A stretch of 39,584 nt of DNA, from positions 1 through 39,584 of the forward strand of contig JBDREC010000096.1 in NCBI GenBank assembly GCA_043820105.1. The letters run 5' to 3'. The DNA comes from Pseudomonadota bacterium (GTDB lineage Bacteria > Bdellovibrionota_F > JAHFAK01 > JBDREC01). Below the pieces are notes generated by a model. The model saw nothing but the letters and a program-made list of their open reading frames with translations. It was not told the DNA's origin and searched no databases. The stretch's first letter is position 1. Every line of letters starts with the position of its first letter. The position numbers and the translations under genes were made by a program. This document shows, piece after piece, positions 5,968-35,663 of the stretch.

Positions 5968-5996
5968 TTGAAATGTTTGATTAATATTTGTATGAT
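5968..5996 (+). promoter_or_regulatory. Sigma70-type promoter of the PilZ-SPT operon
   Basis: TTGAAA (5968-5973), 17 nt spacer, TATGAT (5991-5996), 31 nt upstream of ATG 6028. Confidence 0.55.
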
Positions 5997-6027: not shown

Positions 6028-7611
6028 ATGAAAGAATCAAGGCAGCACGAGAGAAAAAAGTTCTTTCCAAATATTAAAGTAAAATCAACTTTGAATCAAA
6101 AATCATATCAAGTAAATAATATTAGCCTTGGTGGTCTCTCATTAACTGGAGATGATAATTTTTCATTAAAAAACATCTATGAATTAGATCTTTTCCTGCC
6201 ATTTACAAAAGAAACAATTAATTTTAAAGGTGAAGTAGTATACAATAGTCAAATTGAAACTGAATTAAATGAAACTGAAAACCAACAACACCTAATAGGA
6301 ATAAAGTTTACTGAAATTGCACACTACAATGAATTACATGATTTTTTCGAAAAATATAATTTAGATCCATATTGTAATTTCCTGGATTATGTTGAAAATG
6401 AAAATGCTTTATCAGATAAAACTGTTTCCAATTTATCAGATGCTCGAAGAGTATTAAAAATAATTAAAAATGATTTAAAAAATGATGTCTATCCATTTCA
6501 TCAGCCAATTGATCAAATTAGTGGTACAAAAGTAATAATTAGAGGTGAGGAAAGGTTAAACTTAGCTTCATATAACTATTTAAGCCTAGGTCAAGATCCT
6601 AGATTCCTTGATGTCATCACAAGTGCAGTCAAAGAATATGGAACAACTGCTAGTGGATCACGATTATTGAGTGGCACTTTTAATCTTCATTTGAAATTAG
6701 AAAAATTAATAGCTGACTATAAACAAACAGAAGCAGCTACAATTTTCTCAAGTGGCTACGTTGCAAATATTTCAACAATATCATCAATAATGGGAAAAAA
6801 GGATTTAATAATTGTGGATAAATTCGACCACATGAGCATACTTGATGGCTGTAAATTGTCTGGATCAACTGTTGTTAAATTTGACCATAATAATCTTGAT
6901 GAACTTGAAGAAATTTTAAAAACATCCCAAGACTATGAAAAGAAGTTAATAATTGTAGATGCTATTTATAGCATGGGTGGTGACATTGCTCCAATTAAAG
7001 AAATTTTAGACTTAAAGAAAAAATATGATGCTTTACTAATGATAGATGAAGCACACGCCTTTGGTATTTTAGGAAAAACAGGAAGAGGACTAAGTGAACA
7101 TTTCAATCTAGATGTTAAAGATATTGATATTTATATGGGAACATTAAGCAAAGCTGTCCCATCTGTTGGCGGATATATTGCAGGCAGCAAGGATCTTGTT
7201 TATTATTTACAACATTCTTCAAATGCTTACATATTCTCAGGCTCATTATCCCCACAAGATGTTGCAGTTTCAACTAAAGCCCTCGAAATTATGAGAAGTG
7301 AACCAGAAAGAATTGAAAAGCTCTGGGAAAATATAAACTTCTTTAAAAAAGGAATACAAGAAATCGGCTTTGATACACAAGAATCAAACAGTGCTATAAT
7401 TCCCGCTGTTATTGGTTTTTCTGAAGAAACATTAAAATTTGCAAAAAGACTCAATGAAAATGGATTATTTGTTTGTTCTGTGACCTATCCAGCTGTGCCT
7501 ATAGATAAATGCATAATAAGGAATTGCGTTCAAACAAATCATTCCAAAGAGGACTTAGAAAAAGCTATTGATATATTTTCAAAAATTGGCAAGGAAATGA
7601 AATTAATTTAA
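6028..7611 (+). CDS. spt: PilZ domain fused to a serine palmitoyltransferase-like PLP alpha-oxoamine synthase
   Basis: N-terminal PilZ motifs RQHER (RxxxR) and NISLGG (D/NxSxxG). AOS motifs NLASYNYLSLG, SGSRLLSGT, HMSILDG, DEAH and GTLSKA (PLP Lys). SYNYL resembles SPT more than BioF (SNDYL) or Kbl (ANNYL). Adjacent to a bCerS-like gene. Confidence 0.8.
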   Translation: MKESRQHERKKFFPNIKVKSTLNQKSYQVNNISLGGLSLTGDDNFSLKNIYELDLFLPFTKETINFKGEVVYNSQIETELNETENQQHLIGIKFTEIAHYNELHDFFEKYNLDPYCNFLDYVENENALSDKTVSNLSDARRVLKIIKNDLKNDVYPFHQPIDQISGTKVIIRGEERLNLASYNYLSLGQDPRFLDVITSAVKEYGTTASGSRLLSGTFNLHLKLEKLIADYKQTEAATIFSSGYVANISTISSIMGKKDLIIVDKFDHMSILDGCKLSGSTVVKFDHNNLDELEEILKTSQDYEKKLIIVDAIYSMGGDIAPIKEILDLKKKYDALLMIDEAHAFGILGKTGRGLSEHFNLDVKDIDIYMGTLSKAVPSVGGYIAGSKDLVYYLQHSSNAYIFSGSLSPQDVAVSTKALEIMRSEPERIEKLWENINFFKKGIQEIGFDTQESNSAIIPAVIGFSEETLKFAKRLNENGLFVCSVTYPAVPIDKCIIRNCVQTNHSKEDLEKAIDIFSKIGKEMKLI

Positions 7612-7628
7612 CTTGAAAACTACAACTT

Positions 7629-9095
7629 ATGTCTAAAAATAATAGAAAACACACAAGATCAATATGTAATCTAGAAATAAATATTAAGGATAATTATTCA
7701 GAAAATAAAATATCTGGAGTATCATTTGATATAAGCGATAATGGATTATTTTTAGAATTAAATTCAAACTTACAATCTCATGAACAATTTAAAGGTAATA
7801 TAATACTACCAAACAATGTTAAGTTAGATTTTTCAGGACAACCGGTTTACTTTAATAACAATGAAGTGAATGAAAAAAACATAAAAAATATTGGTTATGG
7901 CATTTCAATTGAAAATTTAAATCTCAAATCACACAAAGTATTTAAGGAGTTTCTTAGCAGCATAAATCAACAAAATTCAATTGAAACTGTCAATATCCTT
8001 GAAGCGAACACTTCATCTCTATTAAAAAAATTCATTAATTTTCCTTTCCAGCTTTACAACCCTCAAAGTAATTGGATTGCACCTCTAAAAAAAGACCTAA
8101 TTAAACTACTTTCAAAAGATAGTTCTTTTTCAAAACATAGTGAATTAAAATTATTTTTGGCAGTTCATAATAACAAGTTGGTAGGAAGAATAGCAGCTAT
8201 AATCGATCATAATTATAATACTTTCAATAATTCAAATATTGGCTTTTGGGGATTTTATGAATGTATTGGGAACATCAATGTTTCTAATAAGCTTTTTCAA
8301 AATGTAGTTTCTTTTTCGAAAACACGCGGTTTATCAAAAATAGTAGGCCCACTAAATCCTTCATTTAACCATGATTTAGGTTTCCTCAGCAGTGGATATC
8401 CAAATCTTCCAAATATGCAAATGCCTTATAACTTTATATATTATAATAATTTTGCTATCAATTTTGGGTTCAAAAAACTAAAGGATATTTACAGTTATAA
8501 TATTGATATTACAGATAAACTTAGCTCTAAAATCGACAAATTAGATATAGTGAAAGATGATGATATTAAAATCAGATCAATCAACAAAAAAAACTTTTGG
8601 AGTGACGCAAAAATATTAAGGTATTTATTTAACGAAAGCTATTCCGCTGCAAATCATTGGGGTTTTGCGCCTGTTACAGAAGATGAATGGCTTGACCTTG
8701 CAAAGCATTTAAAAGAAATCATGGATTATGATTTAGTTTTAATAGCTGAATACAAATCAAAACCTATTGGTTATTTGATTTGTGTTCCTAACATAAGTGA
8801 AATTTTACACTCTATTAGAGGTTCAATTAGCTTAATTGATATTATTAAATTCCCATTTCAGATGAAAAAAGTTAATAATATAAGAGCATTAAGCATCGGT
8901 GTTTTAAAACCTTATTGGAAAAAGTTTGTTGGTTTAAAACTTCTAAAAGAAGGGGTAACAAGGATAAAGGAAAAAGGTTACTCCACAATGGAATATGGTT
9001 GGGTTTTAGATGATAATTATCCATCTATTTACTTAGCAAAACAATTGAAAGGAAAACTTTCAAATTCTTATAGTGTATATGAACTTGATATTTAA
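7629..9095 (+). CDS. PilZ domain fused to a GNAT-fold bacterial ceramide synthase (bCerS/YghO-like)
   Basis: PilZ motifs RKHTR and DISDNG. Then FINFPFQLY..W, FLA..VGRIAAIID, GFWGFYEC, IVGPLN, PYN..YY, HWGFAP and EYGWVLDDN, the characteristic motif series of the YghO/bCerS double-GNAT family. Confidence 0.8.
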   Translation: MSKNNRKHTRSICNLEINIKDNYSENKISGVSFDISDNGLFLELNSNLQSHEQFKGNIILPNNVKLDFSGQPVYFNNNEVNEKNIKNIGYGISIENLNLKSHKVFKEFLSSINQQNSIETVNILEANTSSLLKKFINFPFQLYNPQSNWIAPLKKDLIKLLSKDSSFSKHSELKLFLAVHNNKLVGRIAAIIDHNYNTFNNSNIGFWGFYECIGNINVSNKLFQNVVSFSKTRGLSKIVGPLNPSFNHDLGFLSSGYPNLPNMQMPYNFIYYNNFAINFGFKKLKDIYSYNIDITDKLSSKIDKLDIVKDDDIKIRSINKKNFWSDAKILRYLFNESYSAANHWGFAPVTEDEWLDLAKHLKEIMDYDLVLIAEYKSKPIGYLICVPNISEILHSIRGSISLIDIIKFPFQMKKVNNIRALSIGVLKPYWKKFVGLKLLKEGVTRIKEKGYSTMEYGWVLDDNYPSIYLAKQLKGKLSNSYSVYELDI

Positions 9096-9119
9096 TTTTT
9101 TGAGAATAGAATAATTTTT

Positions 9120-12100
9120 ATGCTTATTCAATTTTATAGTTTTTCATATTTAATTACATTAATTTGTGGATTCCTTCTCGGGTTTTATATTTTTACTAGG
9201 GAAAAGAACAAGCAAAACATAATATGGGGAATAATGCACCTTGGTGTAGTTTTATGGAGCTTTGGAAGATATATTCAAATAAATACAAACTCTCATCAAA
9301 CTGCTATTTTAGCTTCGCACGTCTTATTAATAGGTTCACTAATAATTTATCCAACATTATTTCATACAACTTTCATTTTTATAAAAAGAGATTTATTAAA
9401 AAAATGGAAAATATTATTAAGTGTGCTCTATGTAAATTCGCTAATATTAATAGCTATTGAATTTTGGGATATATTTAATGGTGGAAACACATTAATTATT
9501 GAAGTTATACCAAAATTAGACTTCAAGTATTATGAAACCTTTGGTGTATTTTTAACATCACATTTAATAGTGCAACTTTTATTTCCAGTCATTGGTATAT
9601 ATGAATTAATAGATTATTACTTAAAAGCTGATAAATCTGAAAAAAATAGAGTTAAGTATTTTTTATTAGCAATAGTGTTTGGCATAGTTGGATCCACAAC
9701 TGTCCTTGGACTATCTTACAATATCCCAATTACACCATTTGGAGTGTTATTAATCCCTCTCTACCTCATCATGATCAGCTTCGCAATCTACAAACATCGC
9801 TTAATGGACATAAATTATTTTGTTTCCAAGTCAGCAAGTTTTATTTTTCTTTTGTTATTATATGTTGTGCCAGTTTTATTAGTAATAATTTATTTAAATA
9901 AATTCCTGTTTAGTGATTCTATTTCTTGGGGAACAGGAACTTTACTCTTTTTAGCTTTGGCGTTGTCTGGATGGGTTATTCCAAAACTAAAACAATGGAC
10001 AGAATCAACAATAAGTAAAAGCTTTTTTAAAAGAAAAATTGAATATGACAGGGTTTTATCACACCTATCACAATTTATAAATTCAACTTTGAATCTTAAA
10101 AATGTAATTACTGAGATAATGGAAAACCTTGAAAGGGTTTTAAAGCCAGAACAATATGCTTTTTATATATATAACGAATCAAAAGATAGTTTTTCTTTGC
10201 AAACAGAACTTAATTTTAAAAAAGAAAGTGAATATAAAAACATATCATGTGATAATCCAATAATTAAATATTTTTTACAAAATACGAATGAAATTTATTT
10301 AGTTGTTGAAGAGGCAATAAGGACTGAACTTTTTAAACAGTTTCAAGATTTAGAAATAGAGAGCAAGAAATTTGGAATGGAAGTAATTTTACCATTAAGA
10401 ACTGAAGGAAGATTAATCGGCTTAATGTCTTTGGGTATGAAAAAGTCAGGTTTTTATTCTGAAGAAGATTTAGACCTATTATTCAGCGTTTCTAACAATG
10501 CAGGAATGGCGATTAACAATGCTATTTCTTACAAAAAGATTGAAGACCTGAGTATAAATCTTGAAAATAAGGTAAAAGAAAGAACTATTGAATTAGAAGA
10601 CGCCTATGACAAACTAAAAGAGCTTGATGAAGTTAAAACAAACTTTCTATCCAACATTTCACATGAACTGCGCACACCGCTCACAGCCATCAGCAATCCG
10701 GTTGAAATGATACTTGCTGGGGATTTGGGTACGATTAATGATGAGGTTTATGATTATTTGGATGTTGTTAAGAATAATGCTTATCGTTTGTTAAGATTAA
10801 TTAATGACCTTTTGGATATTTCTAAACTGGAATCTAATAAGATGGAACTTAAATATTATAAAGTGGCTGTTGTTCCTTATGTTGATTATCTTGTTAAGTC
10901 TATTGAGCCACTTGTGACAAATAAAAACATTACCTTAAAGAAAGATTATCAAATCGATAATTTTGATGAATTTTTTGATCCTAATAAAATTGAAAAGGTC
11001 ATTATTAACTTACTTTCAAATGCCATAAAGTTCACTGATAATGATGGTGAGATCATTATATCCCTTAAAAAAGAAAATGAATCTTTTTGCTTATCAGTTA
11101 AAGATTCTGGCATTGGCATTGATCCCAAAGATCACAACAAAGTTTTTGATCGTTTCAGCCAAGTTGATTCGACTTTTTCTAGAAAGCATGAAGGAACAGG
11201 CATTGGGCTTGCTCTGGTCAAAGAGCTTGTTGAGCTTCATAAGGGTAAAATTTCGCTTGCTAGTGATATTGGCAAAGGATCTACATTCACTGTTGAGCTT
11301 CCTAGAGTTAATCAGGATGAAATAACTGTTTGGACAGAATATGCAATTGATGATACTGACAGGCGAAAAGAAGAAAGAAGAAAAAATTATGATCGCCGTT
11401 TAAATGACAGGCGTGATAATGAAGACAGACGTGTTGCAACTAGCAAAGAAAATCTTTTAAAAGCAGTAATGGCTGAAAAAGGCTTGTCAAATATTGACAA
11501 AGAAAAGGAAAGCTTAAAACTTACAAAGCATATTAAAATCTTAGAAGGCCGCCCTAACCTTTTATTAGTTGACGACAACCCAGATATCCTCCGTGTTCTA
11601 ATCACAACTTTAAAAGACGATTACAATATAAGTTTCGCTTTTAATGGTGCAGAAGGTTTTGAAAAACTTAATAATGAAAGATTTGACATTGTGCTTTCTG
11701 ATATCATGATGCCAAAAATGAATGGAATCCAGCTTTGTGAAAAAATAAAACTTGATGATAAGTTAAAATATATTCCAGTAATATTATTAACATCAAAATC
11801 AGACATTGAATCAAAAATTCTTGGATATGAAACAGGTGCTGATGATTATGTTACCAAACCATTTAATGCTAATGAATTAAAAGCCAAAGTCAAAGCACTT
11901 CTAAAACTCAAAATGATAATTGATGAATTCAATCAAAATGAAAGAATGATTTCTGTTGGTCGCCTGGCAGCTGGAATTGCACATGAAATAAACAATCCAC
12001 TGAATTATGTTATTAACAGCATAAGACCATTAAAACAAAATATCGCAGAATTAACTTCTCAAACGGATTTTATTGAAAATGAAGCTAATAAAGAAACTAT

Positions 12101-12704
12101 AACTGATATTTCAAAATGCGTTGATCTAATTAAAGATGGTTGTGAACGCACAATTAAAATTGTCAAAGACCTAAGAATGTTTTCACGAATTGATGAGTCA
12201 GTTTATATTGCTGTATGTGTAAATGAAGGAATCGATTTATCTTTATCATTACTTGAACATTTAACTAAAAGCAAAATCACGATCCACAAAAATTATAGAA
12301 CTAATAATCCTATCTTTTGCTATTCTACATTAATTAATCAAGTGTTCATGAACATTCTAACAAACGCAAGTCAAGCGATCACAGATAATCAGGAAAAAGG
12401 AAACATTTGGATTGAAACATATGAAGAAAATGATTTTACCTATATTAAAATAAAAAATGATGGGCCCAAAATACCTGATGAACTTTTAAAAAGAATCTTT
12501 GATCCCTTTTTTACAACAAAAGAAATCGGTGTTGGCTCAGGTCTTGGTCTTTCAATAAGCCATGGAATAATTGCTAAACATGATGGAAAAATTACAGCCC
12601 AAAACCAAAAAGATGGTGTTTTATTTACAATGAGCTTACCAGCTTTAAAACACAATCCAATAGAAAATCAAAACAAGATTTTATCCCAGGAGGTCAATTT
12701 ATGA
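9120..12704 (+). CDS. Membrane hybrid sensor kinase: 7TM-GAF-HisKA-HATPase-REC-HisKA-HATPase
   Basis: Hydrophobic N-terminus ending FAIYKHRLMDI (HisKA_7TM-like), GAF (LPLRTEGRLIGLMSLG..YSEEDLDLL), H-box SHELRTP, N/G boxes NLLSNAIKF, DSGIGI and GTGIGL, REC (LLVDD, DIMMP, KPF), second H-box AHEINNPL and second HATPase (GSGLGL). Confidence 0.92.
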   Translation: MLIQFYSFSYLITLICGFLLGFYIFTREKNKQNIIWGIMHLGVVLWSFGRYIQINTNSHQTAILASHVLLIGSLIIYPTLFHTTFIFIKRDLLKKWKILLSVLYVNSLILIAIEFWDIFNGGNTLIIEVIPKLDFKYYETFGVFLTSHLIVQLLFPVIGIYELIDYYLKADKSEKNRVKYFLLAIVFGIVGSTTVLGLSYNIPITPFGVLLIPLYLIMISFAIYKHRLMDINYFVSKSASFIFLLLLYVVPVLLVIIYLNKFLFSDSISWGTGTLLFLALALSGWVIPKLKQWTESTISKSFFKRKIEYDRVLSHLSQFINSTLNLKNVITEIMENLERVLKPEQYAFYIYNESKDSFSLQTELNFKKESEYKNISCDNPIIKYFLQNTNEIYLVVEEAIRTELFKQFQDLEIESKKFGMEVILPLRTEGRLIGLMSLGMKKSGFYSEEDLDLLFSVSNNAGMAINNAISYKKIEDLSINLENKVKERTIELEDAYDKLKELDEVKTNFLSNISHELRTPLTAISNPVEMILAGDLGTINDEVYDYLDVVKNNAYRLLRLINDLLDISKLESNKMELKYYKVAVVPYVDYLVKSIEPLVTNKNITLKKDYQIDNFDEFFDPNKIEKVIINLLSNAIKFTDNDGEIIISLKKENESFCLSVKDSGIGIDPKDHNKVFDRFSQVDSTFSRKHEGTGIGLALVKELVELHKGKISLASDIGKGSTFTVELPRVNQDEITVWTEYAIDDTDRRKEERRKNYDRRLNDRRDNEDRRVATSKENLLKAVMAEKGLSNIDKEKESLKLTKHIKILEGRPNLLLVDDNPDILRVLITTLKDDYNISFAFNGAEGFEKLNNERFDIVLSDIMMPKMNGIQLCEKIKLDDKLKYIPVILLTSKSDIESKILGYETGADDYVTKPFNANELKAKVKALLKLKMIIDEFNQNERMISVGRLAAGIAHEINNPLNYVINSIRPLKQNIAELTSQTDFIENEANKETITDISKCVDLIKDGCERTIKIVKDLRMFSRIDESVYIAVCVNEGIDLSLSLLEHLTKSKITIHKNYRTNNPIFCYSTLINQVFMNILTNASQAITDNQEKGNIWIETYEENDFTYIKIKNDGPKIPDELLKRIFDPFFTTKEIGVGSGLGLSISHGIIAKHDGKITAQNQKDGVLFTMSLPALKHNPIENQNKILSQEVNL

Positions 12705-13870
12705 ACGATTTAGATTATAAGGATTATCGAGTAATTATTGTTGATGATGAGAGTGGAAACCTTGAATCTTTTGAGCTATGTTATAAAAAAACTTTTAATG
12801 TTATTACGTGTGATAATGCCACTACTGCTCTTGAAAAAGTTAAGGCATATGATAATGTAGCATGTGTTGTTTCTGATCAAAGAATGCCAGACATTTCAGG
12901 GATTGAACTCTTAGCAAAGGTTAAAGAAATCAATCCATCTATTCAAAGATTTATAATCACAGGATATTCAGACATCTCTGTATGTATTGAAGGTATAAAC
13001 AATGGCCTCATTAATAAATATTTTCAAAAACCTTATGATGTTGAAAATCTTGAAAGTGAGATAAAAGGTGCTATTTATACATACTTAAAAAAGATAGAAA
13101 ATGAAAAACTAACAACGCTTTTAATGGAAAAAGTAAGTCAACTAGTAAAACTTAAAAATCAAGGTTCAGACGAAGATGTTAATACTTTAATTAATTCTTT
13201 AGTATCAGAAGTTTCAGCGTTTGAAGAATTTTCAAAGATTGACCAGTTAGAAGAGAATAATATTAATAATAAAGAAGATATAAATACACAAAACGCAAAA
13301 GCAAGTTTCTTTTCTGAAGAAGTAATGGATTTAATAAGGACAAAAGAAGACAAATCCTATGTGAAAATACTAATTTTAAACCCATCTAATTATAAGGAAA
13401 TCGTTAATTTCTGTGATATGCACCATGAAACTTTATCAAACTATTCCTTAGTTTTTGAAATTATAAGTTCTGATGAAAACATTATTCAAGCAAGCAAAAA
13501 ATGCTTTCATGAATGCCAAAGCAAATATAATCTCAATATAACCGTCAAAACAAAGCTTCAACAGCTGAAGGATGTTCTCAATTCAGGCTTAAATGATCTT
13601 TTTGATATTATTTATGTACCATATTTATATAATCATTTTTCCACACCTGTTGCTAAATTCATAACAAATCAACTCCTGCTAGGTCTTTTTGTAAATGGAA
13701 AACTAGTATTTTCCAATTATTCTCATGCTTGTTCAAACACTGCAGATCCACAAAGAGTTGTAGTAAGAACTGAGGCTGATATTAATGATCTTTTAGAAAT
13801 AGCTGATGAAGCACCAAAGATAATTGTCGATAATTCTAGCAATATTATTTTTGCTTCTATAAAAAAATAA
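12701..13870 (+). CDS. Response regulator with a C-terminal degenerate class I SAM-methyltransferase-like domain
   Basis: REC motifs IIVDDE, SDQRMP, ITGY and KPY. C-terminal KILILNPS...FDIIYVPYLYNHFS...LFVNGKLVFSNY follows the class I MTase layout but lacks the Gly-rich motif I. ATGA overlap with the kinase stop codon. Confidence 0.8.
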   Translation: MNDLDYKDYRVIIVDDESGNLESFELCYKKTFNVITCDNATTALEKVKAYDNVACVVSDQRMPDISGIELLAKVKEINPSIQRFIITGYSDISVCIEGINNGLINKYFQKPYDVENLESEIKGAIYTYLKKIENEKLTTLLMEKVSQLVKLKNQGSDEDVNTLINSLVSEVSAFEEFSKIDQLEENNINNKEDINTQNAKASFFSEEVMDLIRTKEDKSYVKILILNPSNYKEIVNFCDMHHETLSNYSLVFEIISSDENIIQASKKCFHECQSKYNLNITVKTKLQQLKDVLNSGLNDLFDIIYVPYLYNHFSTPVAKFITNQLLLGLFVNGKLVFSNYSHACSNTADPQRVVVRTEADINDLLEIADEAPKIIVDNSSNIIFASIKK

Positions 13871-16766: not shown

Positions 16767-17807
16767 ATGTCAGAATTTTTAGATATTTTCAGATACGCTG
16801 GTAAGATTAATGCAAGTGATGTTTTAATAATCGCTAATTCTCCACCTGTTTATAGAGTTAATGGTGATTTAACTCCTGCAAATATGAGTGTTCTAAGTGC
16901 TGAGCAAACAAAAAAATATCTTTATTCTTTAATTGATGAAGATAAAATTAAGAAGTTTGAAAAAACTAAAGAACTGGATTTTTCATTTTCTGTTGATGAT
17001 AAGTTTAGATTTAGGGTTAATTATTACTGGCAAAGAGAAACTGTTTCAGCTGCTTTTAGATTAATCCCTTATGCAATTCCCAGTTTTGAAGATTTGGGAA
17101 TACCTGAGATCGCTAAGAACTTAACAAAATTTCAACATGGTCTTGTTTTAGTAACAGGACCAACTGGCCATGGCAAATCAACAACTCAAGCCTGCCTGAT
17201 TAACCATATAAATTTGAACAGGAAAAAACATATTATCACAATTGAAGATCCAATTGAATATATACACAAAAATATAAACTCTTTCATTGAACAAAGGGAG
17301 GTCTTGCAAGACACTTTAACCTTTGCAAATGGCCTGAAATACGCATTAAGACAAAATCCTGATGTCTTGCTTGTTGGAGAAATGAGAGATCTTGAAACTA
17401 TTTCCTCAGCCCTAACAGCCGCTGAGACGGGTCACTTAGTTTTTGCAACTCTGCATACAAATGATGCCACACAAAGTATAACAAGAATCATCGACGTCTT
17501 CCCGCAGAGCCAGCAAAAGCAGATTACAATTCAGCTAGCTTTCACACTCAAAGCAGTACTATCTCAAAGGTTGATTCCTGGAATAGATAAAAGAAGATAC
17601 TTAGCAAGTGAAGTGCTAATTCAAACCCCTGCTCTATCAAATATGATACGTGAACAAAAACTCACTCAAGTCTTCTCAATGATAGAAACTCAAGGTGCTT
17701 TAGGTATGCATACAATGGATAGTTCGATTTTGGAATTAGTTAAGAATAAAAAGATCACAAAGAACACAGCTCAGCTTTATCTGAAAAAACAGGATACAGA
17801 TATTTAA
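16767..17807 (+). CDS. pilT: Type IV pilus retraction ATPase PilT
   Basis: ASD.., Walker A GPTGHGKST, Asp box TIEDPIE, Walker B LLVGEMRD, His box AETGHLVFATLHT and an AIRNLIRE-like ALSNMIRE. Confidence 0.95.
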   Translation: MSEFLDIFRYAGKINASDVLIIANSPPVYRVNGDLTPANMSVLSAEQTKKYLYSLIDEDKIKKFEKTKELDFSFSVDDKFRFRVNYYWQRETVSAAFRLIPYAIPSFEDLGIPEIAKNLTKFQHGLVLVTGPTGHGKSTTQACLINHINLNRKKHIITIEDPIEYIHKNINSFIEQREVLQDTLTFANGLKYALRQNPDVLLVGEMRDLETISSALTAAETGHLVFATLHTNDATQSITRIIDVFPQSQQKQITIQLAFTLKAVLSQRLIPGIDKRRYLASEVLIQTPALSNMIREQKLTQVFSMIETQGALGMHTMDSSILELVKNKKITKNTAQLYLKKQDTDI

Positions 17808-31518: not shown

Positions 31519-31549
31519 CTACAAACTACAAGCTACCAGCTACAAGCTA
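31519..31549. repeat. Heptamer tandem array (CTACAAG)
   Basis: CTACAAA CTACAAG CTACCAG CTACAAG CTA; the last CTA is the TAG stop codon of the Omp85-fusion gene. Confidence 0.8.
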
Positions 31550-34291
31550 AAAAGATTGATCCAATGCAAAATAAAACCTCGGCGCAGTCTCTGTAATATG
31601 ATCAAGTCTTTGAGCAATATCAAAACGGAAAAGGGTTTCACGAATACCTAAAGCATCAATAAAAAGTCTTAAACTATATCCTGCTGAATAGTTAATTGGA
31701 TCTTTATAAAAGAGTTCATGAAAGCCCTGGCTATGCTCATAAGCTGGATCATTATCTGTATTAATCAAATCCTGATAAGTATTGTTAACTTTTCCTGAGT
31801 CAAAAAGAATCGCTCCTTGAATTTTGGTAAGTCTGAAAATATTCAAAAAATTAAGATTTAGATTTGAAATTAGTCTATGTCTATATTCACAACTTAATAA
31901 AATTCGATTTTTTCCAATTGCTTCAGCGTCTGAATAGTCAAGACCTCTAACACCGCTTAAGCCTCCAATGGAAAAATATTTTTGTTCTGGCAGATCATCT
32001 GATATTGCGCTAGATAATTTTGCCCGTATCACTAAAAGCTGCTCATTTGCAATTTGAATTATTTTTAAGCCAGATAAACCAACTCTATAAATTTCAAAAT
32101 CACTGAGTGTGTATTTTGACCCATACTCAAAGTAACTACCAAGTGCCCATCCTCCTTGAGGATTTTTGTAACTTAAAGTTGATGAAAAACCGTAATACAG
32201 CATAATAGTGTTAGCAATACCGCTTGAGGGAACCAAGGTGTCATCAGAATCCACAAATCCAGGGTTGAGCCAGAGAAAATTATTTGAAATTTCTGCGTAG
32301 TGATTCATTCTTAAAAAATCCACAAGTCTTCCAAATTGGCGTCCATAGCCAGCTGATATTAAAGTTCCAGCTGGATAGTAATAGCCATACAAATTATACC
32401 GATTTTTGGGATCATAAATTCTTCTAAGCTGCAAATCTAATAAAGCAGAAATCTCCCCTGAATTAATATCTAAAGAACCATTTATTTCTCTAACAAGCAA
32501 AACATATTTACTTGGATCTCGATTATCCTTTAAAGTTGTTTCATTTAATCTTTGTTCTGGATCAATTTCAATCAGATTTATTTTATGCTCAGTTGTGAGT
32601 TCTAAAGTATCTTCTTGAGCCTTACCATCCCACTTCAGATAAAGATCCTCAGAATTCTCAAGCTTAATAAAAACAGGTTCCAAAATATCTTCTTTGCTTT
32701 CTTTTGATATTGTAAGCTTTGTTTTATGTAAACCATTTTTCAGCTTTGTTTTTTTGATATCTTTTAAGGCATAGTTTATCTTAGACAAAGGTTTTAGCCA
32801 TTGCTTATAAAACCACTTTAAATCAATACCAGTAAAGTCCTGGCTATATTTATAAAATGATTCTTTTGTAGCGAATTCATTGCTCATTTTAATTATAAAG
32901 TTCCTAAAAAGATCATCATATTCTTCATTACCAATTAGATCTTTTAGCTTTTCTGCAATTACCCTGCCAGAAGGAATATTTCTTGTATAAGTTGAAAAAT
33001 CAGTTTTTAAATAATCATCAGAATAAATTTTATTAAAATAAACAGATGAAAAGGGATATTGAGGTGTAAAAATAACTTCTTGAACTGCAGGAATGAAACT
33101 AAAAAGTTTCACGAGTAACAAATCTTTGGCATTTTCGATTTCGTTAAATTCAACTTTTCTAAATGCTCTATACTTATCTGTGATATACCAACCGAGAGCT
33201 TCAGATACCAAAATATTCTCATCCCCAGGTAATAAACCTTTCAATTTCTGCCTAAATATTTGGGTTGCCAAGCCATTAATAAAACCAAACTCATGAAAAT
33301 ACCTGACAAAATTAAAAATCTGAAATGCACGATCAGATAAAAAAAGCATATCATCAGAGTTCATTGTAAGCAAATGCCGAAGCCGGATTTCGGAAACAAT
33401 AACTTGCTGCCTAGGTATTTGCATTCCGTAGCTTGATAAAAACTCATTAAACTTTTTTAAGGTATCATTAATATATTCTATCTGTTTCTTATTTTCCCTT
33501 GGCTTTAGAAATATAAGATCCAGATAATCACTTTTATAAGTTGTTAAATAAAAATCCTTTGATAAAACTAGTGAAGGATAATAAGCTTCAAATTTAAAAA
33601 TTTTTACCCTTAATTTTGTGCACATAATTCCATTTGCTATGCCAACTAAGTCCTCATCTGTGTTTAAAGATATGTTAAATATTGATCTCTGAGGATATAA
33701 ATTAGAATAAGCACCATCTGAAAGCTCTTCAATATAAAAAGGAAAAAAGTAACCATTTAGATTAATATCTTTTCCATAGTAGCCAAAAGTTCCAAAACGA
33801 TGAGGAATAAGCGTAGTAAAATATAGCTTAAGGTTTATTTTATCATCTTTTTGAATTATTTTTCCGAGTTTAATTTCTGTAACAGTATCATTAATAATTT
33901 CGTTTTTAGGCCTTTCTTTATTAATAGCAAAAGAATACTCTAGCTTATCATTAACTAGAATTTCATCTATTTCAAAAGAAATACTGCCTGCATTAAAATC
34001 TTTTGGAAAAATCCATTCATAATTAATATCATTAAGCTGGTCAGATTGTTTTAAAAAAGCATTTGGAAATAAACCAAGCTTAATGCTATCTCTATCTACA
34101 TTATTAATAAATTCTATATCAACCTTCCCATGAATTTGCATATGTTCACTATCAAGATATGCGTTAATTTTATAAGTAGGAATAGAAAAGACATTTTGTG
34201 CAAAAAAGATTAAAGTAAAATTGAATAGAATAGAAAAGATATACGCCGTACGCTGTATGCTGTACGCTCTACGCCTACAAGTCTTTTGCAT
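31547..34291 (-). CDS. M1-aminopeptidase-like domain fused to a C-terminal Omp85/BamA-family beta-barrel
   Basis: M1 N-domain pattern (YKINAYLD..IHG.VDIEFIN, LFPNAF, RFG), degenerate Zn site FHEFGF...SEAL, DLKWFYKQWL and IEIDPEQRLNE. Barrel with FSIGGLSGVRG and a terminal Phe (ALDQSF). Start uncertain. Confidence 0.75.
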   Translation of the reverse strand: MQKTCRRRAYSIQRTAYIFSILFNFTLIFFAQNVFSIPTYKINAYLDSEHMQIHGKVDIEFINNVDRDSIKLGLFPNAFLKQSDQLNDINYEWIFPKDFNAGSISFEIDEILVNDKLEYSFAINKERPKNEIINDTVTEIKLGKIIQKDDKINLKLYFTTLIPHRFGTFGYYGKDINLNGYFFPFYIEELSDGAYSNLYPQRSIFNISLNTDEDLVGIANGIMCTKLRVKIFKFEAYYPSLVLSKDFYLTTYKSDYLDLIFLKPRENKKQIEYINDTLKKFNEFLSSYGMQIPRQQVIVSEIRLRHLLTMNSDDMLFLSDRAFQIFNFVRYFHEFGFINGLATQIFRQKLKGLLPGDENILVSEALGWYITDKYRAFRKVEFNEIENAKDLLLVKLFSFIPAVQEVIFTPQYPFSSVYFNKIYSDDYLKTDFSTYTRNIPSGRVIAEKLKDLIGNEEYDDLFRNFIIKMSNEFATKESFYKYSQDFTGIDLKWFYKQWLKPLSKINYALKDIKKTKLKNGLHKTKLTISKESKEDILEPVFIKLENSEDLYLKWDGKAQEDTLELTTEHKINLIEIDPEQRLNETTLKDNRDPSKYVLLVREINGSLDINSGEISALLDLQLRRIYDPKNRYNLYGYYYPAGTLISAGYGRQFGRLVDFLRMNHYAEISNNFLWLNPGFVDSDDTLVPSSGIANTIMLYYGFSSTLSYKNPQGGWALGSYFEYGSKYTLSDFEIYRVGLSGLKIIQIANEQLLVIRAKLSSAISDDLPEQKYFSIGGLSGVRGLDYSDAEAIGKNRILLSCEYRHRLISNLNLNFLNIFRLTKIQGAILFDSGKVNNTYQDLINTDNDPAYEHSQGFHELFYKDPINYSAGYSLRLFIDALGIRETLFRFDIAQRLDHITETAPRFYFALDQSF
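34242..34276. repeat. Heptamer tandem array (TACGCTG)
   Basis: TACGCCG TACGCTG TATGCTG TACGCTC TACGCCT, abutting the stop codon of the sigma54 activator gene. Confidence 0.85.
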
Positions 34292-35663
34292 TTAAATTAT
34301 ATTTTTTCAAAAGTCTCTGAATTGATTTTCTATCTATATGAGCTTCTTTTGCAGCTTTGGAAATATTTAGATTATTTCGTTTCAATAAATTCACTAAATA
34401 TTCCTTTTCAAAGGATTCAACCCATTTATCTTTTGCTTCTTTAAATGGTAAAGATTCATCAATTTGAACATGAGGACCTTCAACAGAAACCTTGAATCTG
34501 ATGTTATCAGGTAAATCAGTAACAGATATTCTATCACTAGAACAAAAAGTAATAGCTCTTTCAATTGCGTTTTTTAATTCTCTAACATTACCTGGCCAGT
34601 TATAATTCATTAATATTGATAGGGCATCTGGCTCAATACCTGCAATTTTTGGCTGGTCTTCATCAAGTTTAGCGTTATGTCTACTAACAAAATGCTCGGC
34701 TAGCAGAGCTATATCTTCTCTTCTTTCTTTTAGTTGCGGAATTCTAATAGAAACAACGGAAAGTCTAAAATATAAATCTTCTCTAAAACGATTTTCTTTA
34801 ACTTCTGTTTCAAGGTTTCTATTTGTTGCACAAATAACCCTAACATCAACTTTGGTATGTCTATCACCACCAACACGTTTTACAGTTCTTTGTTCCAAAG
34901 CCCTAAGTAATTTAGGTTGAAGATCAAGATTAAGCTCTCCAATTTCATCAAGGAAAATGGTTCCCCCATTTGCAAGTTCAAAGGCTCCTTGCCTTGAACT
35001 AACTGCTCCTGTAAAAGCACCTTTTTCATGGCCAAAAAGTTCTGATTCAATTAAATTATCAGCAACAGCAGAACAATCAAAAACAATAAATGGTTTTTTA
35101 ATTCTTCTTGAATTCTTGTGAATCGCTTCAGCTACCATTTCCTTACCGGAACCAGTTTCACCTTCAATAATTACAGTCACATCTGTAGGTGAAATCTTTT
35201 CTAAAATTCCGTAAATTCTTCTCATTGAAAGATGTTGACCAATAATATCCCCAAATTTTTTCTTTTTTGATGGAAAAATTTCTATTTTCTCATCAATTGG
35301 TAAAAATTTTATTTCAGTTTTACCCAGTTTTATGACAGCTCCAGGATGTAAAAAAGCCTCCATTACCCTGATATCATTTAGAAATGTACCATTAGTGCTT
35401 TCATGGTCTCTTAAAATATAAGTCCTTTGATCTTGGTAAACTTTATGTATTATTTCACAATGAACCCTGGAAATAGTTTCATCTTCTAAAACCAGATCAC
35501 AATCTTTTTTTGATCCAATCTTAATATTCGCTTTATCTAGAATAAATGATTTACCCTTACTTATACCTTCAACAACAACAAGTCTACATTTATGCAGAGT
35601 TAAGGTTGTTGGCATTTCGTCAAATTTAACTACTTTGGTCCCAGCTGGTTCTGTTTTGCTCAT
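34275..35663 (-). CDS. FHA-domain sigma54-dependent enhancer-binding protein (FHA-AAA+-Fis HTH)
   Basis: FHA motifs IGS..CDL..D..ISRVH and [35 protein letters not shown] and WPGNVREL; C-terminal [18 protein letters not shown]. Confidence 0.95.

Follow-up and report, generated by a model that had tools for sequence, protein, structure and literature searches.

PilZ domains on two successive enzymes of a possible ceramide-like lipid pathway encoded beside a sensor kinase

The window, as we call the whole stretch of DNA that was analysed, comprises 39,584 nucleotides (positions 1 to 39,584 of contig JBDREC010000096.1, GenBank assembly GCA_043820105.1) from a Pseudomonadota bacterium that GTDB places in Bdellovibrionota_F. 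It carries two adjoining genes, each of which joins an N-terminal PilZ domain to a biosynthetic enzyme. The first (6028..7611, + strand) encodes P0001, a protein of 527 amino acids (aa) that begins with a PilZ domain, continues through a helical linker and ends in a complete alpha-oxoamine synthase (AOS), every catalytic residue of which is present. The second (7629..9095, + strand), 17 nucleotides downstream, encodes P0121, a protein of 488 aa in which a PilZ domain precedes a tandem-GNAT acyltransferase. We give about an even chance to the reading that these genes constitute a two-step module, gated by cyclic di-GMP (c-di-GMP), that makes an N-acylated keto-amine (ceramide-like) lipid and is co-transcribed with a seven-transmembrane (7TM) hybrid kinase and a regulator. 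A first-pass annotation of this DNA had recognized the fusion in the first gene; the PilZ domain on the adjoining gene is absent from it.

In the proposed pathway, a dimeric AOS dependent on pyridoxal 5'-phosphate (PLP) would condense an amino acid with an acyl-CoA or with an acyl group on acyl carrier protein (ACP), yielding a 3-keto-amine "long-chain base". The tandem-GNAT enzyme would then N-acylate the keto-amine to give a 3-keto-dihydroceramide-like lipid. Both enzymes would work in the cytoplasm, one after the other. Because a sensor is present on both enzymes, flux through both steps would follow one messenger.

The PilZ-AOS gene was characterized by its open reading frame (ORF) and translation, by Pfam and NCBIfam profiles, and by AlphaFold2 and Foldseek. 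It is the single open frame on the + strand over 6028..7611, and the opposite strand is riddled with stop codons. Residues 4-98 match the PilZ family (PF07238) with 30.0 bits (E 6.8e-07; Pfam gathering score 22.5), and residues 177-515 match Aminotran_1_2 with 179 bits, so the fusion of PilZ to a complete AOS described by the first-pass annotation is borne out in one frame. The four motifs that it had listed are also intact: RQHER (residues 5-9; 6040-6054, + strand) and NISLGG (residues 31-36; 6118-6135, + strand) in the PilZ domain, and DEAH (residues 340-343) and GTLSKA (residues 371-376) in the enzyme. Together with a C-terminal helix that extends to residue 112, the PilZ domain occupies 6037..6363 (+ strand).

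According to a survey of PilZ proteins (bioRxiv 10.1101/814665), the refined PilZ motif is RxxxR followed by [D/N]hSxxG, in which h is a hydrophobic residue, and the canonical PilZ core is a six-stranded beta-barrel with one long helix. When the first 110 residues of P0001 were shuffled, RxxxR with [DN]hSxxG at a distance of 15-35 residues after it was found in 6 of 200,000 shuffles. An AlphaFold2 model of P0001, built on a 40-row alignment, has a mean predicted local distance difference test (pLDDT) value of 88.2. Its PilZ domain contains strands at residues 17-20, 26-32, 36-41, 50-56, 63-76 and 87-97 and a helix at 100-112 (pLDDT 71-91), and this set of six strands and a helix matches the canonical core. 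Residues 1-10, which bear the RxxxR motif, are disordered in the model.

The catalytic body of the AOS (6505..7608, + strand) is a PLP enzyme of fold type I whose Schiff-base lysine, K375, is encoded at 7150-7152. Residues H268, S315, D340, H343, T372, S374, K375 and S404 are all present. In a sequence alignment with the serine palmitoyltransferase (SPT) of Sphingobacterium, K375, H268, D340 and H343 pair with K244, H138, D210 and H213, and S315, T372, S374 and S404 pair with S185, T241, S243 and S273. With the residue roles reported for the Sphingobacterium enzyme (PMC10196870), P0001 has the full AOS set of a Schiff-base lysine, a PLP-stacking histidine, an aspartate for the pyridine nitrogen, a histidine for O3', and phosphate-binding serine and threonine residues. 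R498 is invariant across the 40-row alignment.

The best solved relatives of P0001 are SPTs. In a sequence search of solved structures, Sphingobacterium SPT scored highest at 309 bits, followed by a Thermus BioF/Kbl enzyme (272 bits), KBLs (225-247 bits), the SPT of S. paucimobilis (240 bits), AONS (about 170 bits) and CAI-1 synthase structures (PDB 2wk8 and 3hqt; 111 bits). By fold, SPTs are again the best relatives (Foldseek E 1e-43, TM 0.95), and target-normalised TM values to SPT, KBL and AONS structures are all within 0.92-0.96. A loop containing G210-S211 resembles that of SPT, which is a weak sign, as no verified residue pattern separates users of serine, glycine and alanine. An attempt to read the substrate from active-site residues yielded nothing, as the first-pass annotation had anticipated; the serine contacts in Sphingobacterium SPT are reported to be mostly backbone or water-mediated (PMC10196870). 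P0001 may condense serine with a long-chain acyl thioester, where serine is a default guess for the amino acid.

The two halves of P0001 are connected by a helical linker (residues ~113-159; 6364..6504, + strand) that leads to the AOS fold at its N-terminal helix. Linker helices are modelled at residues 117-128, 131-134 and 137-151 (pLDDT 65-78), and conserved P..F and R motifs are shared by the linkers of three PilZ-AOS fusions, P0001 included. The alignment with Sphingobacterium SPT begins at residue 143, which corresponds to SPT residue 13, and residues 143-160 align with SPT residues 13-30. In that SPT, the N-terminal helix is reported to be part of a hydrophobic core in contact with the substrate-pocket loop of the partner subunit (PMC10196870), and N-terminal truncation of a related cysteate acyltransferase is reported to have lowered activity (PMC13692747). 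Since the PilZ domain is joined by helices to the N-terminal helix of the AOS, which in Sphingobacterium SPT packs on the pocket loop, a signal could reach the active-site entrance. The proposed control would have c-di-GMP bind the RxxxR and [DN]hSxxG motifs of each PilZ domain. In P0001, the PilZ N-terminus, ordered by its ligand, would act through the linker and the N-terminal helix on the active-site entrance, and the AOS would be turned up or down.

The PilZ domain of P0121 (residues 5-109; 7641-7955, + strand) scores 31.2 bits against the same gathering score of 22.5. Its motifs are RKHTR (residues 6-10) and DISDNG (residues 34-39), with the h position again hydrophobic, and such a pair occurred in 28 of 200,000 shuffles. 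A recent tandem duplication as the origin of the two PilZ domains was dismissed, because their mutual E value is 0.35.

The remainder of P0121 (residues ~120-488; 7986-9092, + strand) folds as a tandem GNAT. Its nearest folds are amine N-acyltransferases (Foldseek E 3e-14 and below), and the nearest solved ones are glucosamine N-acetyltransferase, tandem GNATs and MshD. By sequence, P0121 had no match among solved structures at E <= 1, and the names that it drew from the ESM Atlas were a generic "GNAT". In a collection of 5.8 billion clusters, 47 relatives of the enzyme part were found; all but one are 334-401 aa long, and none has a PilZ domain. The exceptional relative, P0167, is a 577-aa protein fused to a fatty-acid hydroxylase domain (PF04116). 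E. coli YghO also belongs to the GNAT family of P0121 (28% identity, E ~5e-29). A complex prediction for the AOS body and the GNAT body gave a score of 0.00 and a mark of 0.32, which counts neither way.

The genomic contexts of this GNAT family were collected by using an alignment of 8 rows to scan the genomes of 185,579 species, and the best 80 of 592 confirmed loci, from many phyla, were analysed. Of these 80 loci, 58 contain an AOS gene; it is directly upstream on the same strand in 50, directly downstream in 5, and within a few kilobases in 3. The 56 AOS ORFs recovered from such pairs are all too short for a PilZ extension, and the GNAT ORFs have 367-423 aa, except for one of 630 aa (locus L057). 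A tblastn search of the 80 loci with either PilZ N-terminus of the window found nothing. Among the 56 GNAT-paired AOS proteins, the SPT-CFB model is the top NCBIfam profile by at least ~70 bits in 55, the exception being a distant cyanobacterial enzyme; the SPT-CFB cut-off itself is passed by one of the 56.

Neighbouring genes were examined in 28 of the 58 AOS-GNAT loci, picked for long flanks, and 89 neighbouring ORFs were scanned. These include epimerase/3beta-HSD-type reductases in 13 loci (one being similar to a common sugar epimerase), PAP2_3 proteins in 5, glycosyltransferases in 2 and a fatty-acid hydroxylase in 1. A hydroxylase gene in a metagenome-assembled genome (MAG) from Bdellovibrionota (L041:6983-7624) lies ~1 kb downstream of an Spt-GNAT pair, past a phosphofructokinase gene. 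Together with the hydroxylase fusion P0167, it is further lipid context for the GNAT family. In five of the 28 loci (L042, L052, L058, L001 and L033, from Bacteroidota and Ignavibacteriota), the gene after the Spt-GNAT pair encodes a class IV aminotransferase, and in three loci a small cNMP-binding protein comes next, a possible further link to a nucleotide messenger.

Two clusters place the GNAT family beside recognized SPTs. In Sphingomonas parapaucimobilis, the genes encode an NAD(P)H-binding protein, ACP, AOS, an ATP-binding protein, LptF, LptG, a desaturase and an N-acetyltransferase. The AOS is the crystallised SPT of S. paucimobilis (907 bits to PDB 2jg2; NCBIfam SPT score 833, cut-off 670), and the N-acetyltransferase aligns end to end with residues 120-488 of P0121 (28% identity, E 1e-55). 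On a Klebsiella michiganensis plasmid (NZ_CP106839.1, 115876-122422; locus L087), an SPT (613, cut-off 500) is encoded with ACP, an epimerase, a fatty acyl-AMP ligase and a GNAT that matches P0121 with E 1e-46. This gene set, on an IncFIB plasmid, adds a diacylglycerol kinase and looks like a complete mobile set for a ceramide-type lipid.

The genes for Spt, the bacterial ceramide synthase (bCerS) and CerR are reported to be often clustered (PMC11334938), and Spt and bCerS are described as cytoplasmic and as the first to act, in sequence (PMC11087976). Experimentally defined bCerS proteins include CCNA_01212 of Caulobacter and BF9343_4218 of B. fragilis (PMC10865984; bioRxiv 10.1101/2023.05.23.541633). 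Because an SPT-like AOS accompanies the GNAT family in 58 of 80 loci, the Sphingomonas SPT cluster among them, this family is probably the bCerS family, and P0121 is probably a PilZ-fused member of it. P0121 would then be predicted to N-acylate an amine resembling 3-ketosphinganine. Like the Spt-bCerS-CerR systems of Caulobacter, Sphingomonas and Bacteroides, the window has an AOS followed by a GNAT of ~370 aa from the family found in SPT clusters. Unlike these systems, both of its enzymes have an N-terminal PilZ domain, the AOS is outside the SPT clade and below the SPT cut-offs, no CerR, ACP or head-group gene is nearby, and the pair shares its putative operon with a two-component system.

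A Rosetta-stone fusion, P0290, is the best individual argument that this acyltransferase is fed by an AOS of the P0001 kind. It is a protein of 919 aa in which PilZ, AOS and GNAT are on one chain. Its residues 9-531 align with the whole of P0001 (E 6e-91), and its residues 543-911 align with residues 119-484 of P0121 (E 4e-43). The AOS of P0290 has the same generic top NCBIfam profile as P0001 (TIGR01825, 405.7, over SPT-CFB, 377.3), so the missing SPT signature of P0001 is compatible with an enzyme that works beside this GNAT. Because P0290 has one PilZ domain, a single PilZ can serve an AOS and GNAT pair. The PilZ-fused GNAT neighbour, the Sphingomonas cluster and the triple fusion thus add support, beyond what the first-pass annotation had offered, to a sphingolipid-type role.

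PilZ-AOS fusions recur. When a profile of the three fusions was compared with 1.84 billion representatives, 31,168 matches were obtained and the best 150 were considered; several proteins of 500-580 aa match the profile from its N-terminus onward. Thirty of the best 150, picked by length and N-terminal coverage, were scanned with Pfam. The N-terminal domain is a PilZ at or above the cut-off in 13 of these and a PilZ below the cut-off in 3; in 9 an ACP (PP-binding) domain occupies the same place, and 5 have nothing recognizable there. The fusion is therefore present in at least 13 further clusters at 50% identity and represents a small family, not a unique protein. When P0001 alone was searched against genome contigs, no relative was retrieved.

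That the AOS parts of 20 proteins with a PilZ or weak PilZ domain form one clade was rejected by the approximately unbiased (AU) test (p-AU 0.0015), which was run in IQ-TREE with a simple model and fast search and can over-reject. One shared AOS ancestry for all PilZ-AOS fusions was accordingly set aside, and PilZ domains appear to be present on at least two AOS lineages. Two-domain ACP-AOS proteins occur in the clade of P0001 (P0178, P0193, P0194, P0198, P0200, P0214, P0250, P0304 and P0318). This clade is also close to AOS domains within very large multidomain proteins, presumably PKS-like, and many matches of 1000-2500 aa are among those listed in the search.

The position of P0001 within the AOS superfamily was examined in three trees that included the BioF enzymes of E. 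coli and Acinetobacter, the Kbl enzymes of E. coli and Ralstonia, and HemA. In a tree of 88 rows, the three fusions form a clade (support 97) nested in a clade with stand-alone relatives (99). The 55 GNAT-paired AOS proteins form a separate clade (97) that joins the P0001 clade at 88, with the reference BioF, Kbl and HemA left outside. In a tree of 80 rows with more fusions, the P0001 clade also contains ACP-AOS fusions. In a tree of 82 rows, made with a fast search, the SPTs of Sphingomonas and Klebsiella join the GNAT-paired clade (96.6), the P0001 clade is sister to this SPT clade (74), and the whole set excludes Kbl, BioF and HemA (87-91). A super-clade of P0001 and the SPTs that excludes the reference Kbl, BioF and HemA is thus found in all three trees, with SH-like approximate likelihood ratio test (SH-aLRT) supports of 88, 91 and 87-91. 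A grouping with BioF or Kbl, which the first-pass annotation had named as the result that would speak against its proposal, is not seen for these references. In the 88-row tree, the AOS of a record titled Eggerthellaceae (L053) is nearly identical to those of Elusimicrobiales MAGs (L045 and L070; branch lengths 0.02-0.04), which may reflect a binning or labelling error or a recent transfer.

Several observations weigh against the reading of the two genes as a c-di-GMP-gated, sphingolipid-type module. P0001 lies outside the SPT clade, in a neighbouring clade, and it misses all three SPT equivalog cut-offs (CFB, 395.3 against 640; BetaP, 338.0 against 500; AlphaP, 281.6 against 670); control enzymes from Mucilaginibacter (746.7), Sphingomonas (833.4) and the Klebsiella plasmid (613.4) pass. 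The margin for SPT-CFB that typifies GNAT-paired AOS proteins is missing in P0001, in the two other fusions and in 23 stand-alone relatives. The nearest relatives of P0001 (48-50% identity) are stand-alone proteins of ~396 aa that carry BioF/Kbl names in their source; those with named origins are from Atribacteria, Caldisericia and Woesearchaeota, and one stand-alone relative, P0056, passes the bioF cut-off. Deep-node supports in the trees are moderate (74-91) and come from quick searches, and the TIGR01825 type (the "BioF/Kbl" of Thermus and Bacillus), which had no reference in the trees, may be the home of the P0001 clade.

On the acyltransferase side, 22 of the 80 GNAT loci have no AOS; 9 of these have less than 3 kb of upstream sequence and 13 have at least 6 kb, so the AOS-GNAT pairing is frequent, not obligatory. 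The identification of the family as bCerS rests on synteny and on papers that cite the work defining bCerS. The 39.6-kb window contains no homologues of a CerR-like reductase, ACP, acyl-AMP ligase, PAP2 or hydroxylase (tblastn, E < 0.1), and no head-group gene was found in it. On the regulatory side, the PilZ N-terminus of P0001 matches no solved structure significantly by sequence (best E 0.52), that of P0121 is modelled poorly (pLDDT 29-60), and Pfam and NCBIfam scans of the window found no GGDEF, EAL or HD-GYP gene. Because P0001 is outside the SPT clade and below the SPT cut-offs, the earlier suggestion that it performs the committed step of sphingolipid synthesis stays at the level of inference. 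The description of it as SPT-like stands insofar as its best solved relative is an SPT, and fails insofar as it is taken to mean membership of the SPT clade or a score above the SPT cut-offs.

These same data bear on a second explanation, in which P0001 is a small-molecule AOS of the BioF/Kbl (TIGR01825) type that joins glycine or alanine to a short acyl-CoA. The enzyme would belong to threonine catabolism or to a route to biotin or another cofactor, tied by its PilZ domain to c-di-GMP, and the GNAT would acetylate the amino-ketone or be unrelated. The top NCBIfam model for P0001 is indeed TIGR01825 (401), and bioF (382) and Kbl (367) are close to SPT-CFB (395); the names of the nearest relatives, the score of P0056, and the rank of the Thermus BioF/Kbl enzyme and of KBLs close behind SPTs in the fold search point in the same direction. 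In its top NCBIfam score and its fold (E ~3e-41), P0001 resembles TIGR01825 enzymes such as the promiscuous AOS of Thermus (PDB 7poa and 8s1y), but it differs from them in being below their cut-off (401 against 535), fused to PilZ, and partnered with a GNAT of the SPT-cluster family. No BioF or Kbl cut-off is reached either (bioF, 382 against 426.45; Kbl, 367 against 460; a further model, 300 against 493), and the reference BioF and Kbl enzymes are outside the super-clade of P0001 and SPTs. The Pfam and NCBIfam scans found no tdh or bio genes in the window. Of 80 loci of the GNAT family, 58 include an SPT-type AOS, P0290 joins a GNAT of this family to an equally generic AOS, and ACP-AOS fusions share the clade of P0001. 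On balance we regard the small-molecule explanation as improbable. In favour of the sphingolipid-type reading, SPT activity has been reported for an AOS outside the canonical SPTs (PMC12134224).

The sphingolipid-type reading also requires that the PilZ domains sense c-di-GMP, and from their motifs we infer that those of both P0001 and P0121 may bind it. The domains could instead be adaptors for localisation or protein-protein contacts, or could have lost ligand binding despite their motifs. Both motifs are present at canonical spacing in 11 of the 16 PilZ-AOS proteins, the triple fusion included, as well as in both proteins of the window, and the shuffles indicate that such pairs are very improbable by chance. 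One or both motifs are missing in the other 5 of the 16, the PilZ domains of P0001 and P0121 are dissimilar to each other (E 0.35), and the window has no genes for c-di-GMP turnover, although these enzymes may be encoded far away. An adaptor role, or a loss of ligand binding, seems quite unlikely to us.

Downstream of the two enzyme genes, a hybrid sensor kinase of 1194 aa is encoded at 9120..12704 (+ strand), 24 nucleotides past the PilZ-GNAT gene. It contains a 7TM domain (HisKA_7TM), GAF, HisKA-HATPase and REC domains and a second HisKA/HATPase, with two stretches of each kinase domain, and this double-kinase layout is unusual. The next gene (12701..13870, + strand), which overlaps the kinase gene by 4 nucleotides, encodes the response regulator P0122 (389 aa), with a REC domain and a C-terminal domain. 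The last ~250 residues of P0122 match no Pfam or NCBIfam family; in the ESM Atlas they are near class I SAM methyltransferases (Methyltransf_20; scores 0.85-0.86, TM 0.63-0.72), which is a lead only. Some of the clusters nearest P0122 bear PilZ or cNMP-binding domains where P0122 has REC.

The four genes at 6028-13870 are spaced by 17, 24 and -4 nucleotides, and no terminator-like sites were seen within this stretch, so the synthase genes, the 7TM kinase and the regulator are probably one transcript and one operon. A candidate sigma-70-like promoter, TTGAAA-17-TATGAT (5968..5996, + strand; 10 of 12 matches), is ~30 nucleotides upstream of the first start codon. It is a weak candidate, because 48 promoter-like sites were found against 51.3 expected from shuffles.

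Perhaps the kinase and regulator set expression of the module, or sense membrane state or its product. A stronger version of the proposal combines c-di-GMP post-translational gating at two successive enzymes, in at least two AOS lineages and reduced to a single PilZ-AOS-GNAT chain in another protein, with a lipid- or membrane-sensing 7TM kinase that closes a loop between envelope and messenger; this version we consider doubtful.

The kinase also suggests a different product. In place of a bulk lipid, the AOS and GNAT might make an N-acyl amino-ketone signal, either diffusible or held in the membrane, that is sensed by the adjoining 7TM kinase, with the PilZ domains coupling output to c-di-GMP. 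In the Cqs and Lqs systems of alpha-hydroxyketone signalling, genes for a synthase, a sensor kinase and a regulator are found in this kind of order, and we know of no GNAT partner in either of them. CqsA is an AOS-family enzyme (PDB 2wk8 and 3hqt), and, like CqsA/CqsS and LqsA/LqsS, the window has an AOS-family synthase gene beside those for a membrane sensor kinase and a response regulator, probably on one transcript. None of the 28 other AOS-GNAT loci examined has a kinase beside the pair, so the kinase linkage is special to the window. The position of P0001 outside the SPT clade, and a window free of reductase, ACP and head-group genes, would likewise suit a signal.

The likeness to CqsA is, however, the weakest among the AOS subfamilies (223.2 against a cut-off of 428 for the CqsA/LqsA equivalog NF005526; CAI-1 synthase scores 111 bits where SPT scores 309). 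The window also differs from the Cqs and Lqs systems by adding a GNAT, two PilZ domains, and a 7TM-GAF hybrid kinase with two cores. The GNAT family of P0121 occurs in sphingolipid clusters, and adjacency of a kinase is by itself no proof of product sensing. A signal factory is thus an unlikely explanation, and a ceramide-like lipid stays our preferred product for the module.

The proposed control has parallels in other systems. In cellulose synthase BcsA and alginate Alg44, c-di-GMP acts on the enzyme itself. HfsK of Caulobacter is not known to contain a PilZ domain, and its target is reportedly a polysaccharide adhesin. HfsK is an N-acyltransferase-family effector of c-di-GMP, as described in PMC5362036, and so ties an acyltransferase to this messenger as proposed here for P0121. 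BcsA and Alg44 are among the PilZ fusions named in the PilZ survey (bioRxiv 10.1101/814665), and they are like the proteins of the window in that a biosynthetic enzyme includes PilZ or has it attached; they are membrane polysaccharide synthases, whereas the PilZ domains of the window are at the N-termini of soluble-type PLP and GNAT enzymes whose chemistry concerns lipids or amines. The eukaryotic ORM/ORMDL proteins exert post-translational control of the first sphingolipid enzyme, as is proposed here, and SPT-ORMDL3 and SPT-Orm1 structures are among the matches of P0001. The ORM/ORMDL mechanism uses separate membrane subunits and ceramide sensing, whereas the window would use a fused receptor for a second messenger.

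The remainder of the window (G+C 29-35%) contains many long ORFs without a Pfam or NCBIfam family, of 731, 856, 771, 663, 494, 485, 475 and 333 aa. An acidic 108-aa ORF, P0123 (5483-5809, - strand), also without a family, is divergent from the operon and upstream of it. For a PilT protein (16767-17807), the best match has 58% identity, and the matches with named origins are scattered over Hydrogenedentes, Planctomycetes, Omnitrophica and Bacillus; the source lineage thus looks poorly sampled. An FHA-domain sigma-54 activator (34275-35663, - strand) shares 17 nucleotides with the beginning of a gene for a 914-aa protein that ends in an Omp85 domain (31547-34291, - strand), and formiminotransferase-cyclodeaminase and NIF3 genes lie further along. 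All of these last genes are apparently unrelated to the fusion.

PilZ, AOS, GNATs of SPT clusters and two-component systems are each known, and their combination was not found described. No description of a PilZ-AOS or PilZ-GNAT protein was found in the literature searched, largely outside subscription journals. The words "aminotransferase" and "acetyltransferase" are not in the main text of the PilZ survey (bioRxiv 10.1101/814665), where the fusions mentioned are polysaccharide synthases and regulators.

The effects of c-di-GMP are exerted on exopolysaccharide-making enzymes, motility and transcription. To our knowledge, the regulation of bacterial sphingolipid synthesis is largely uncharted. 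The underlying biosynthetic genes are reported to have been defined only recently (PMC11334938, PMC11087976). The fused sensor provides a directly testable handle, with two soluble-type enzymes, one commercial ligand and clear point mutants in RxxxR. The triple fusion and the ACP-AOS relatives suggest that non-canonical AOS proteins feed the same acyltransferase family, and, if so, more organisms are predicted to make such lipids. The module should therefore be of interest to those who study c-di-GMP and to those who study bacterial sphingolipids. A direct hold of c-di-GMP on membrane-lipid synthesis, if true, would extend the reach of this messenger to the envelope and would be the first second-messenger allosteric control of bacterial sphingolipid-type synthesis.

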